Shown here in pieces: positions 2,862 through 60,403 of a stretch of DNA of 64,000 nt (positions within the stretch are counted from its first letter, which is position 1; each line of letters starts with the position of its first letter). Under the pieces are notes generated by a model. The model was not told where the DNA came from. It saw only the letters and a program-made list of their open reading frames with translations, and searched no databases. The DNA is taken from assembly GCF_044647545.1 (NCBI RefSeq), contig NZ_CP172818.1; one strand, 5' to 3'. The stretch comes from Escherichia coli (GTDB lineage Bacteria > Pseudomonadota > Gammaproteobacteria > Enterobacterales > Enterobacteriaceae). The translations under genes and the position numbers were made by a program.

Positions 2862-3088
2862 AGGATGCTCCTGTTATGGTCGTTATGTCGGATAACCTCT
2901 TCCAACAGTGCATTTGCAGGTGAATATAAGGCAATGGTTTAAGATTTCAGCCAGGCAAAGATACCCAGCAGAGAATCTTGAAATAATTAACAAACAAAGG
3001 AGTTACAGTTAGAAATTGTAGGAGAGATCTCGTTTTTCGCGACAATCTGGCGTTTTTCTTGCTAATTCCAGGATTAATCCGTTCATAG

Positions 3089-3106
3089 TGTAAAACCCCG
3101 TTTACA
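3089..3106 (+). promoter_or_regulatory. TyrR box in aroG promoter region
   Basis: TGTAAA-N6-TTTACA palindrome (tgtaaaaccccgtttaca) about 70 nt upstream of aroG ATG. Confidence 0.65.
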
Positions 3107-4394: not shown

Positions 4395-5147
4395 TTACTT
4401 CGCTTTACCCTGGTTCGCAACGGCTGCTGCTTTCGCCGCGATCTCATCAGCATTACCCAGATAATAGCGTTTCAGCGGTTTGAAGTTCTCGTCAAACTCA
4501 TAAACCAGCGGCACGCCGGTCGGGATATTCAGCTCAAGAATCTCTTCTTCGCTCATGTTATCGAGATATTTCACCAGCGCACGTAACGAGTTACCGTGTG
4601 CAGCGATGATGACGCGCTCACCGCTCTTCATACGCGGCAGAATGGTTTCATTCCAGTAAGGGATCACGCGGTCAATGGTCAGCGCCAGGCTTTCCGTCAG
4701 TGGCAGCTCTTTCTCGCTCAGTTTCGCGTAACGCGGATCGTGACCCGGATAACGCTCATCATCTTTAGTCAGTTCCGGCGGAGTCACCGCAAAACCACGA
4801 CGCCACTGTTTCACCTGCTCGTCGCCATACTTTTCAGCGGTTTCCGCTTTGTTCAGACCCTGCAATGCACCGTAGTGACGTTCGTTCAGTTTCCAGGATT
4901 TCTCAACGGGCAGCCATGCCTGATCCAGTTCGTCCAGCACATTCCATAGGGTATGAATAGCGCGTTTCAGCACAGAGGTGTAAGCAAAGTCAAAGCTGTA
5001 ACCTTCCTCTTTCAGCAGCTTACCTGCTGCTTTTGCTTCGCTTACGCCTTTCTCAGACAGATCCACGTCGTACCAACCGGTGAAACGGTTTTCTTTGTTC
5101 CACTGACTTTCGCCATGACGAACCAGAACCAGCTTAGTTACAGCCAT
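4395..5147 (-). CDS. gpmA: 2,3-bisphosphoglycerate-dependent phosphoglycerate mutase
   Basis: Start chosen at [17 protein letters not shown] (RHG catalytic motif) with GGAG RBS upstream; longer ORF to 5162 is an N-terminal extension. Confidence 0.93.
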
Positions 5148-30821: not shown

Positions 30822-30841
30822 AACTGTTTTTTTATCCAGTA
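30822..30841 (+). promoter_or_regulatory. LexA (SOS) box of uvrB overlapping promoter
   Basis: aaCTGTttttttatCCAGta (CTGT-N8-CCAG) immediately followed by TATAAT; about 75 nt upstream of uvrB ATG. Confidence 0.8.
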
Positions 30842-49475: not shown

Positions 49476-49622
<147 letters not shown>

Positions 49623-49702
49623 TTCACAACAAGCACTTGTCAGCAATTTGAGAACACGGGAAAAAATTTCTCTGTTTTACCTCCCATAAGCCACCCGAGA
49701 CG

Positions 49703-50185
49703 TTACTTCTCTATAGCCAATTGTTCGCGCAACTCCATTAAAAGGTAGCCCAGTCGATTCTTGCCCTTACCATTACCACCGTCTCCCCAGTAAGCATCAT
49801 TTTCCGTATGCTCAACCAGTTTTGCGGGCGCGGTTGCCAGCAAGAGCGCACGCAGTTCTGCATGCTGTTCGAATTTAGCGCGAAGTGCTTTTCGCATCAC
49901 CTGTTCTTTGACCGACTCCCAGTTTTTACGCAGAGGCTTAGAACGATCGCGCCCCATGCGTGCGGCGACCATAGGGGAAGAAACCCGACGGATCTCTTCG
50001 CGGTATTTTTCATCAAGGAATTTTTGTGCCTGAAAATAGTGTTCTGAGGTGGGCCAGGTTTTCCCGTCAACCTTGATGGGCCAGGCGGCAAAGTTAGAAA
50101 AATCACCGTAGTCATCGCCGGTGCTGTAGAAATTTATGATGGTGTCTTGCATGACGTGTTGGATCCTTTGTGCTCGAACGGGCAT
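49703..50185 (-). CDS. ybiA: N-glycosidase YbiA (DUF1768)
   Basis: 160-aa ORF divergent from dinG. Confidence 0.92.
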   Translation of the reverse strand: MPVRAQRIQHVMQDTIINFYSTGDDYGDFSNFAAWPIKVDGKTWPTSEHYFQAQKFLDEKYREEIRRVSSPMVAARMGRDRSKPLRKNWESVKEQVMRKALRAKFEQHAELRALLLATAPAKLVEHTENDAYWGDGGNGKGKNRLGYLLMELREQLAIEK

Positions 50186-50270
50186 TAAACCGCATTATGT
50201 TGATGGTTATTGCGAGCCGCTTTCCAGAAACAGAAAAACCATTACCCCTGAAAACCGAAAAATGCCACAA

Positions 50271-50290
50271 TATTGGCTGTTTATACAGTA
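50271..50290 (+). promoter_or_regulatory. non-canonical LexA box of dinG
   Basis: tattggCTGTttatACAGta, 15 nt upstream of the dinG ATG; right half-site is consensus, left half-site diverges. Confidence 0.65.
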
Positions 50291-50304
50291 TTTCAGGTTT
50301 TCTC

Positions 50305-52455
50305 ATGGCATTAACCGCCGCGCTTAAAGCGCAAATTGCCGCCTGGTATAAGGCGCTTCAGGAACAGATCCCCGACTTTATTCCCCGTGCGCCGCAGCGG
50401 CAGATGATTGCGGACGTCGCCAAAACGCTGGCCGGAGAAGAAGGGCGGCATCTGGCGATTGAAGCACCCACCGGCGTTGGGAAAACGCTCTCCTATTTGA
50501 TCCCCGGCATCGCCATTGCCCGCGAAGAGCAAAAAACGCTGGTGGTAAGTACCGCCAACGTGGCATTGCAGGATCAGATCTACAGCAAAGATTTACCGCT
50601 GCTGAAAAAGATCATTCCCGATCTTAAATTCACTGCTGCTTTTGGGCGTGGGCGCTACGTTTGCCCGCGTAATCTGACGGCGCTCGCCAGTACTGAACCC
50701 ACGCAACAGGATCTGCTGGCGTTTCTTGACGACGAGCTGACACCGAACAATCAGGAAGAGCAAAAACGTTGTGCGAAGCTGAAGGGCGATCTCGACACTT
50801 ATAAATGGGATGGCCTGCGCGATCATACTGATATCGCTATAGATGATGATCTCTGGCGTCGTTTGAGTACCGACAAAGCCAGCTGCCTCAACCGCAACTG
50901 TTACTACTATCGCGAATGCCCGTTTTTTGTTGCTCGTCGGGAAATTCAGGAAGCGGAAGTGGTGGTGGCAAACCATGCGCTGGTGATGGCGGCGATGGAA
51001 AGCGAAGCCGTATTGCCTGACCCGAAAAATTTACTGCTGGTGCTGGACGAAGGTCATCACCTGCCAGATGTGGCGCGGGATGCGCTGGAGATGAGCGCCG
51101 AAATCACCGCGCCCTGGTATCGACTACAGTTGGACTTGTTCACGAAACTGGTCGCTACCTGCATGGAGCAGTTTCGCCCGAAGACCATCCCACCGCTGGC
51201 GATCCCTGAACGTTTGAATGCGCATTGTGAAGAGCTGTATGAGCTTATCGCCTCGTTAAACAACATTCTCAATCTCTACATGCCTGCCGGGCAGGAGGCA
51301 GAGCACCGTTTTGCGATGGGCGAACTGCCTGATGAAGTGCAGGAGATCTGCCAGCGGCTGGCAAAACTCACCGAGATGCTGCGTGGCCTGGCGGAGTTAT
51401 TTCTTAACGATTTAAGTGAGAAAACCGGCAGCCATGACATTGTACGTCTGCATCGGTTGATTTTGCAGATGAATCGCGCGTTGGGGATGTTCGAGGCGCA
51501 AAGCAAACTCTGGCGGCTGGCGTCTCTGGCGCAATCTTCCGGTGCGCCGGTGACCAAATGGGCGACGCGGGAAGAGCGCGAAGGGCAGCTGCATCTCTGG
51601 TTTCACTGTGTGGGTATTCGTGTCAGCGATCAGCTGGAAAGGCTGCTGTGGCGCAGTATTCCGCACATTATTGTCACCTCCGCAACCTTGCGTTCGCTGA
51701 ACAGTTTTTCGCGTTTGCAGGAGATGAGTGGTCTGAAAGAGAAAGCGGGCGACCGTTTTGTGGCGCTGGATTCCCCCTTCAACCACTGCGAACAGGGCAA
51801 AATTGTTATTCCCCGGATGCGCGTTGAGCCTTCTCTCGACAACGAAGAGCAGCATATTGCCGAAATGGCGGCCTTTTTCCGTAAGCAGGTGGAGAGCAAA
51901 AAACATCTCGGTATGTTGGTACTGTTTGCCAGCGGACGGGCGATGCAGCGCTTTCTCGACTATGTGACGGATTTACGTCTGATGTTGCTGGTGCAGGGCG
52001 ATCAGCCGCGTTACCGTTTAGTTGAACTGCACCGCAAACGCGTCGCCAACGGTGAGCGCAGCGTGCTGGTGGGCTTACAGTCATTTGCCGAAGGGCTTGA
52101 TCTGAAAGGCGATCTGCTCAGCCAGGTGCATATCCACAAAATCGCTTTTCCGCCCATCGACAGTCCGGTGGTGATCACCGAAGGTGAATGGCTGAAAAGC
52201 CTCAACCGCTATCCGTTTGAGGTGCAAAGCCTGCCGAGCGCTTCGTTTAACCTGATTCAGCAGGTTGGGCGACTGATTCGAAGCCACGGTTGCTGGGGGG
52301 AAGTGGTTATCTACGACAAACGCTTGCTGACCAAAAATTATGGCAAGCGACTACTGGATGCATTACCGGTATTTCCGATAGAGCAACCGGAAGTCCCTGA
52401 AGGTATAGTTAAAAAGAAAGAAAAAACGAAATCCCCACGCCGTCGGCGGCGTTAA
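50305..52455 (+). CDS. dinG: ATP-dependent DNA helicase DinG (Fe-S, XPD-like)
   Basis: Start chosen at MALTAALKAQIAAWYK (716 aa); motifs APTGVGKT and VLDEGHHL; LexA-like box 15 nt upstream. Confidence 0.93.
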   Translation: MALTAALKAQIAAWYKALQEQIPDFIPRAPQRQMIADVAKTLAGEEGRHLAIEAPTGVGKTLSYLIPGIAIAREEQKTLVVSTANVALQDQIYSKDLPLLKKIIPDLKFTAAFGRGRYVCPRNLTALASTEPTQQDLLAFLDDELTPNNQEEQKRCAKLKGDLDTYKWDGLRDHTDIAIDDDLWRRLSTDKASCLNRNCYYYRECPFFVARREIQEAEVVVANHALVMAAMESEAVLPDPKNLLLVLDEGHHLPDVARDALEMSAEITAPWYRLQLDLFTKLVATCMEQFRPKTIPPLAIPERLNAHCEELYELIASLNNILNLYMPAGQEAEHRFAMGELPDEVQEICQRLAKLTEMLRGLAELFLNDLSEKTGSHDIVRLHRLILQMNRALGMFEAQSKLWRLASLAQSSGAPVTKWATREEREGQLHLWFHCVGIRVSDQLERLLWRSIPHIIVTSATLRSLNSFSRLQEMSGLKEKAGDRFVALDSPFNHCEQGKIVIPRMRVEPSLDNEEQHIAEMAAFFRKQVESKKHLGMLVLFASGRAMQRFLDYVTDLRLMLLVQGDQPRYRLVELHRKRVANGERSVLVGLQSFAEGLDLKGDLLSQVHIHKIAFPPIDSPVVITEGEWLKSLNRYPFEVQSLPSASFNLIQQVGRLIRSHGCWGEVVIYDKRLLTKNYGKRLLDALPVFPIEQPEVPEGIVKKKEKTKSPRRRRR

Positions 52456-52482: not shown

Positions 52483-53445
<963 letters not shown>

Positions 53446-59476: not shown

Positions 59477-60403
59477 ATGTCCGCCCAGAAACCGGGGTTG
59501 CATCCGCGCAACCGTCATCACAGCCGCTACGATCTCGCCACGCTTTGTCAGGTCAATCCTGAACTCAGGCAATTCCTCACGCTTACACCCGCCGGGGAGC
59601 AAAGCGTAGACTTTGCCAATCCGCTGGCGGTGAAGGCGCTCAATAAGGCGTTGCTGGCCCATTTTTACGCCGTAGCGAACTGGGATATCCCCGACGGTTT
59701 TCTCTGCCCACCAGTACCGGGCCGGGCGGATTATATTCATCACCTTGCCGATTTACTGGCAGAAGCAACAGGATCAATTCCAGCTAATGCCAGCATTCTG
59801 GATATCGGCGTTGGTGCGAACTGTATTTATCCGCTGATTGGCGTACATGAATATGGCTGGCGTTTTACTGGTAGTGAAACCAGCAGCCAGGCGTTAAGCA
59901 GTGCGCAGGCGATCATCAGTGCTAATCCGGGGCTTAACCGCGCCATTCGTCTGCGTCGGCAAAAAGAGAGTGGGGCGATTTTTAACGGCATCATCCATAA
60001 AAACGAGCAATACGACGCGACCTTGTGTAACCCGCCATTCCACGATTCCGCCGCTGCGGCACGGGCAGGTAGTGAACGTAAACGCCGTAACCTGGGGCTA
60101 AACAAAGACGATGCACTGAATTTTGGTGGTCAGCAACAGGAGTTGTGGTGTGAAGGCGGTGAAGTCGCTTTTATTAAAAAGATGATTGAAGAGAGCAAAG
60201 GCTTCGCGAAGCAGGTGATGTGGTTTACCTCGCTGGTATCTCGTGGTGAAAACTTACCGCCGTTGTATCGTGCCCTGACGGACGTGGGCGCGGTGAAGGT
60301 GGTTAAAAAAGAGATGGCCCAGGGGCAAAAGCAGAGTCGCTTTATTGCCTGGACCTTTATGAACGACGAGCAGCGCCGCCGTTTTGTCAATCGCCAGCGT
60401 TAA
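59477..60403 (+). CDS. rlmF: 23S rRNA m6A1618 methyltransferase
   Basis: Start chosen at [15 protein letters not shown] with AAGGAG RBS (308 aa); SAM-MTase motifs [12 protein letters not shown] and NPPF. Confidence 0.92.

Follow-up and report, generated by a model that had tools for sequence, protein, structure and literature searches.

The asymmetric LexA operator in front of Escherichia coli dinG: a known SOS box, its conserved weak form and its possible reach to the divergent gene ybiA

The short region between the divergent genes ybiA and dinG of Escherichia coli raises two questions, namely whether the asymmetric 20-mer lying just before dinG is a genuine LexA operator of the dinG-ybiB operon and whether the same site could also bring ybiA under SOS control. 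The stretch of DNA analysed as a whole, hereafter the window, comprises 64,000 nucleotides of the E. coli chromosome, and the 1.1-kb segment around the dinG box was found to be 100% identical in several complete genomes. The 20-mer at 50271-50290 is very probably the classical LexA operator of dinG-ybiB. The identity of the site, the measurements of LexA binding, the induction by DNA damage and the dependence on lexA are documented in the literature; its position, score, rarity and deep conservation were established in the present analysis. The reading of the 20-mer as a LexA box in the initial annotation was thus right but not new, as the site is the already known dinG SOS box, for which scoring by heterology index (HI), a LexA binding assay and expression in SOS-deficient backgrounds have all been published.

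In an identical piece of E. coli DNA annotated in RefSeq, the gene order is rhlE (+), ybiA (-), dinG (+), ybiB (+) and hcxB (+). The features of immediate concern are the following.

49703-50185, minus strand: ybiA, carrying a NADAR domain (Pfam); N-glycosidase and guanosine-ADP-ribosyl hydrolase; divergent from dinG
50186-50304: ybiA-dinG spacer, 119 nt, bounded by the ybiA start codon (50185-50183, minus strand) and the dinG ATG (50305)
50271-50290: dinG LexA operator (SOS box), TATTGGCTGTTTATACAGTA, separated from the dinG ATG by 14 nt
50305-52455, plus strand: dinG, ATP-dependent DNA helicase of 716 aa with DEAD_2 and Helicase_C_2 domains (Pfam)
52483-53445, plus strand: ybiB, TrpD2-family DNA-binding protein with a Glycos_trans_3N domain (Pfam), co-transcribed with dinG across a 27-nt gap

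The length of 119 nt previously assigned to the divergent region is exact by coordinates (50186-50304), and the placement of the 20-mer also holds: 14 nt intervene and the ATG begins 15 nt after the last operator base. Neither a promoter nor a terminator was found in the 27-nt gap between dinG and ybiB. A single UV-induced transcript, listed as "ybiB, dinG", carries the dinG LexA motif upstream (PMC3009722, Thomassen 2010), and ybiB has been placed in a LexA-regulated operon with dinG (PMC10123104).

An Rfam search of 49500-50700 returned nothing in the ybiA-dinG spacer, and its matches were REP-type elements between rhlE and ybiA (49544-49625). The ES036 match at 49544-49586 on the minus strand exceeds its gathering score, and the adjoining naRNA4 matches at 49587-49625 fall below theirs. 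The annotated YbiA N-terminus reads MPVRAQRIQHVMQDT..., the Pfam NADAR match starts at residue 19 and an in-frame methionine occurs at residue 12 (ATG 50152-50150), so the ybiA start codon could sit 33 nt downstream of the annotated one.

Comparison of TATTGGCTGTTTATACAGTA with the LexA consensus TACTGTATATATATACAGTA gives 15 matches in 20 positions, with all five mismatches confined to positions 3-11. The right half-site ACAGTA (50285-50290) is consensus, and the left half-site TATTGG keeps four of the six bases of TACTGT, having lost C3 and T6 (G at position 6). The earlier description of a half-degenerate box therefore stands as regards the consensus right half and the divergent left half, and is slightly overstated in its wording since the left half retains four bases of six. 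Where a CTG would be expected 10 bp upstream of the CAG, TTG is found at 50273-50275, its T and G being correctly spaced. A consensus search allowing up to three mismatches across the whole 64-kb window gave no match; the dinG box escapes such a search because of its five mismatches, and a weight matrix is needed.

Such a matrix for HI was trained on 17 boxes other than that of dinG, all of them LexA sites preceding genes induced by UV in Thomassen 2010 (Table 4). In its oriented form, with the site under test left out, the dinG site scored an HI of 12.8, the weakest of the 18 boxes, and in symmetrised form 11.4, near-weakest and ahead of dinB and polB only; both values fall inside the range of functional boxes (polB, dinB, ftsK). 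The oriented matrix gives 7.8 against 12.8 for the two orientations of the dinG site, an artefact of the small oriented training set, and for this reason the symmetrised and the published HI were relied upon. The published HI is 8.6-8.65 (from Courcelle 2001, in a source table that covers loci with HI <14). The weak-side scores obtained here (11.4-12.8) and the published value both agree with the weak LexA binding previously predicted from the asymmetry of the operator.

With regard to rarity, an HI of 11.44 or better was reached at only three loci of the 64-kb window, namely the box of uvrB, the dinG box and one site within rlmF, compared with an expectation of 0.27 sites this good per 64 kb of random Markov-1 sequence. 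No LexA-like site in the window scores better than the uvrB LexA box, AACTGTTTTTTTATCCAGTA at 30822-30841 (symmetrised HI 4.8), which belongs to the training set of the matrix. The rlmF (ybiN) coding sequence contains a canonical CTG-N10-CAG site, TACTGGTAGTGAAACCAGCA at 59866-59885, whose HI of about 11.1 is on a par with that of the dinG box, and no adjoining promoter was seen at this intragenic site. A further LexA-like 20-mer, TACTGGATGCATTACCGGTA at 52352-52371 (HI 12.4), lies in the 3' end of dinG with CGG instead of CAG in its right half; it ends 112 nt before the ybiB start and is probably a chance occurrence. By matrix score alone the dinG box would rank no better than the rlmF intragenic site, so that sequence by itself appears suggestive and not decisive; what settles the dinG box as a LexA operator is its position and conservation, beyond its score.

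The literature on this box is substantial. The motif AATATTGGCTGTTTATACAGTATTT, identical to the window site, is tabulated as the dinG LexA motif among UV-induced genes (PMC3009722), and PMC6590174 classifies dinG under "known SOS box". The original description is that of Lewis, Jenkins and Mount (1992, J Bacteriol 174:3377). Compared with the E. coli dinG SOS box of these sources (Lewis 1992; PMC3009722), the site described here has the same sequence, gene, organism and distance of 14 nt before the ATG, and differs in nothing except the strain. In Culyba 2018 (PMC5999292), LexA off-rates and Kd are reported for 28 native operators, the dinG operator is transplanted into the recA promoter, and dinG is classed as an "early" promoter, one of low ED50 that is completely derepressed at less than 10 J/m2 of UV. 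The same article (PMC5999292) states as a rule that both CTG motifs are required, with CTG and CAG exactly 10 bp apart. The left half of the dinG box breaks this rule, yet the field accepts the site as an SOS box.

Induction of dinG has been recorded with several agents. With AZT, dinG rises 3.2-fold with a lexA3 dependence of 1.7-fold (RNA-seq, PMC11228462); with ciprofloxacin it rises about 3-fold at the RNA level and is also induced at the protein level in a multi-omics study; and in Salmonella it rises 10.6-fold with nalidixic acid (Merida-Floriano et al. 2021, PMC8072944). The early or partial induction of dinG-ybiB that had been anticipated is borne out by the early, low-dose saturation reported in Culyba 2018, by fold changes of 1.7-3.2 in E. 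coli and by the common transcript. The boxes of sulA, umuDC, recN and dinD resemble that of dinG in their 20-bp architecture, in their repressor and, given the promoter predicted here for dinG, in the overlap of operator and promoter. They carry CTG and CAG, have HI values of about 2-5 and show slow LexA dissociation with late, high-dose induction, in contrast to the TTG, the HI of 8.6 and the early, low-dose induction of dinG. The dinG box is in this sense a textbook example of operator strength setting the order of the SOS response, a point already established.

Conservation of the operator was followed at two depths. Within the species, 5404 of 5421 complete E. coli genomes carry the 50-mer 50258-50307 unchanged. 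Beyond it, dinG loci were taken from 80 Enterobacteriaceae species, including members of Escherichia, Citrobacter, Kluyvera, Salmonella, Klebsiella, Enterobacter, Kosakonia, Atlantibacter and Pluralibacter, and in all 80 the orthologous 20-mer, 13-15 nt from the ATG, scored best as a LexA-like site over the 200 nt preceding dinG. Hardly any variation is seen over the 80 species in the block 50259-50289, and DNA farther upstream is unalignable. Among the 74 distinct orthologous sequences the ACAGT of the right half is invariant, and operator position 3 is G in 72; E. coli and E. albertii carry T at this position, E. whittamii carries A, and C never occurs. Since position 3 is never C across the species, the weak left half is an old and stable feature and not a recent decay. 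That the weak form of the operator is frozen across the Enterobacteriaceae is a small, testable refinement and no discovery.

The Salmonella enterica dinG box (PMC8072944) is orthologous, likewise situated 14 nt before dinG, and has an HI of 10.08. The Salmonella loci compared carry TAGTGGCT(G/A)TTTATACAGTA; position 3 is G in the Salmonella box and in most genera as against T in E. coli, and Salmonella has no ybiA upstream.

From the phylogenetic pattern and the promoter geometry we infer the exact dinG promoter elements and start site as follows.

50242-50247, plus strand: predicted -35-like element of dinG, TTACCC (reading TTGCnn in the majority of genera), with a spacing of 18 bp to the -10 hexamer, called from conservation
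50263-50271, plus strand: predicted extended -10 of dinG, TGcCACAAT, with TG at 50263-50264 and the hexamer at 50266-50271, its last T being operator position 1; called from the conservation pattern
50278-50279, plus strand: predicted dinG transcription start, 7-8 nt past the -10 hexamer, called from the -10 geometry
50295-50297, plus strand: AGG resembling a Shine-Dalgarno sequence, with 7 nt between it and the dinG ATG; CAGG is kept in most species

T50263 and G50264 are invariant in the 74 distinct sequences, 50265 takes all four bases, and the A, A, A and T of CACAAT never change; in the otherwise variable stretch farther upstream, 97% of distinct sequences share T50243 and 74% share T50242. 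A strict sigma-70 scan of 49900-50600 yielded no promoter, and a relaxed hexamer scan, with 7-8 of 12 matches, listed the predicted dinG -10 and -35. In view of these weak scores the dinG promoter calls rest on the phylogenetic footprint. No dinG start is listed in the transcription start site (TSS) table of Kim 2012. With this geometry the operator would span about -8 to +12 of the dinG promoter, the usual arrangement for steric repression.

The mode of action that follows can be outlined. In a LexA dimer, one monomer would contact ACAGTA, the consensus right half, and its partner the weakened left half TATTGG, and the bound repressor would block RNA polymerase at dinG because the operator starts at the last base of the predicted -10 and covers the predicted start site. 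As the left half is devoid of the C of CTG, LexA would be expected to leave the operator readily, and dinG would therefore be derepressed early, at low doses of damage and with a modest fold induction. A secondary and less certain element of the scheme is that the same operator would also lie over the -35 region of the divergent ybiA promoter and thereby repress it.

The overlap of operator and promoter also bears on the persistence of the weak left half. A G at promoter position -5 makes open complexes 10-50-fold longer-lived relative to C (Haugen 2006, in the summarised form given in PMC10911233). Operator position 3 would coincide with promoter position -5, and promoter needs may accordingly keep the operator permanently weak as a trade-off; stabilisation of the open complex by a -5 G is offered as a possible reason why the LexA-optimal C never appears at position 3.

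The question of whether ybiA is SOS-responsive too had been raised earlier for this region, and public data hint that it is, by way of recA dependence on single arrays. In the bleomycin arrays of PMC3305319, which according to their authors are single samples, ybiA rose from 68.9 to 187.1 (2.7-fold) in the wild type and went from 128.2 to 110.5 (0.86-fold) in the recA deletion strain. Values from the same single samples were 1.76-fold in the wild type versus 0.80-fold in the recA deletion strain for dinG and 2.08-fold versus 1.06-fold for ybiB, and the flanking genes rhlE (1.09-fold) and ybiC (1.16-fold) were unchanged by bleomycin in the wild type (PMC3305319). The promoter side of ybiA can be drawn as follows.

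50251, minus strand: start of ybiA transcription as given by Kim et al. 2012 (NC_000913.2 position 832239), based on 2 reads, among the lowest counts of the rows compared
50259-50267, minus strand: putative ybiA extended -10, TGgCATTTT, which overlaps that of dinG in a back-to-back arrangement; from the start at 50251 and sequence; weak hexamer
50282-50287, minus strand: putative ybiA -35, TGTATA, inside the LexA operator, with a 17-bp spacer; from the start at 50251 and sequence; weak hexamer

The 51-nt ybiA upstream sequence of Kim 2012 matches the window minus strand 50301-50251 exactly, and counted from this 2-read start the operator falls at -20 to -39 of the ybiA promoter.

Against these hints stands the possibility that the site regulates dinG only, ybiA being a chance neighbour whose seeming induction would stem from noise or indirectly from damage, and we consider it an even wager that this is so. 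It draws on the single-sample nature of the arrays and the 2 reads behind the ybiA start, and on the absence of ybiA from the published SOS gene tables checked (PMC6590174; ciprofloxacin; AZT), including those derived from Courcelle 2001. The supplements of the ciprofloxacin multi-omics and UV tiling-array papers list no ybiA entry. The distribution of ybiA speaks in the same direction, as it is not a conserved neighbour of dinG. In a tblastn survey of the 1.5 kb upstream of dinG in the 80 species, ybiA was found in only two other Escherichia loci, as partial matches; rhlE lies directly upstream of dinG on the same strand in 55 of the 80 and is not within 1.5 kb of dinG in the other 25. Even within E. 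coli, intact ybiA beside dinG is missing in about 37% of the 5421 complete genomes, and the operator is kept in these. The non-intact forms are 5'-truncated, or replaced by a PaaA2/ParE toxin-antitoxin pair or by the type III effector gene espX2, and the ybiA-altered loci compared (L003, L004, L005) have their junctions at about window 50191, 50206 and 50210, all retaining the 95-115 nt nearest to dinG. The junction between rhlE and dinG is a hotspot for insertions. Since genomes and species devoid of ybiA retain the operator, it evolved for dinG, and ybiA arrived beside it.

The divergent genes uvrA and ssb have one LexA box in common, and both of its sides have been studied experimentally. 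This pair, like dinG and ybiA, places one LexA box between divergent genes and serves as a model for a bidirectional operator; the evidence on ybiA consists of single-sample arrays and a 2-read start, in contrast to the experiments available on both sides of the uvrA-ssb box. As a precedent it would count against a role of the site confined to dinG, as do the contrast of 2.7-fold in the wild type with 0.86-fold in the recA deletion strain, which runs parallel to dinG and ybiB with rhlE and ybiC flat, and the sole reported ybiA start, which puts the operator over the putative ybiA -35 and spacer.

On balance, LexA repression of ybiA through the dinG operator would be given roughly the weight of a coin toss. 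More tentative, and held with low confidence, is the joint reading in which one bidirectional operator would serve two overlapping extended -10 elements, the -5 trade-off would apply at dinG, and YbiA would be a member of the SOS regulon in Escherichia alone, because its gene had been inserted beside a dinG operator that was already there. The K-12 YbiA protein removes ADP-ribose from guanosine in DNA in vitro, according to a 2024 paper that also loosely counts ybiA in a LexA-controlled operon, without direct evidence. Were LexA control of ybiA true, a NADAR enzyme that de-ADP-ribosylates DNA would join the E. coli SOS regulon, and the control of ybiA is the only piece of the dinG box story with residual value.

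A different concern is that the block 50259-50289 might be conserved for promoter and start-site function or for another regulator, the likeness to a LexA site being partly coincidental. We hold this improbable, even though operator positions 7-14 (CTGTTTAT), which differ greatly from one to another of the 18 E. coli boxes, are invariant over the 80 species, the block shares bases with the predicted -10, discriminator and start site, and the left CTG is missing in every species. The right-half ACAGT and the left-half T-G, at exact N10 spacing, are equally invariant; LexA binding to the dinG operator has been measured (Culyba 2018, PMC5999292); and dinG expression is recA- and lexA-dependent. 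No sign of another regulator was seen at 50259-50289. Promoter constraint and LexA binding can moreover coexist, and the invariant centre of the operator probably reflects overlapping promoter and start-site constraints besides LexA.

Less credible still, and very unlikely in our estimate, is that LexA uses the inner inverted repeat CTGT-N4-ACAG at 50277-50288 instead of the published 20-mer: CTGTTTATACAG does hold a perfect CTG and a perfect CAG, but their spacing is CTG-N6-CAG and LexA operators need 10 bp, the left CTG at 50277 would need a CAG at 50290-50292 where ATT is read, and the matrix scan shows no competing register with HI <=16 in the region, so that this register was rejected for its wrong spacing. 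A chance match was likewise rejected on the grounds of where the site lies, how well it is conserved and what has been published on its binding and on expression.

The published 20-mer is interrupted by a mobile element in a few genomes. In strain TUM13064 an ISL3-family element, ISEc53, with a ClbS/DfsB gene sits inside the dinG operator at a point corresponding to window 50277-50284, with insertion coordinates of 3085-3100 and 4975-4995 in the strain's own locus (L006) and an 8-bp target duplication, CTGTTTAT. The insertion cuts dinG off from its predicted -10 and -35 and destroys the left half-site, and in such strains dinG is presumably transcribed from the insertion sequence, free of LexA. 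The same split match was found in about six complete E. coli genomes.
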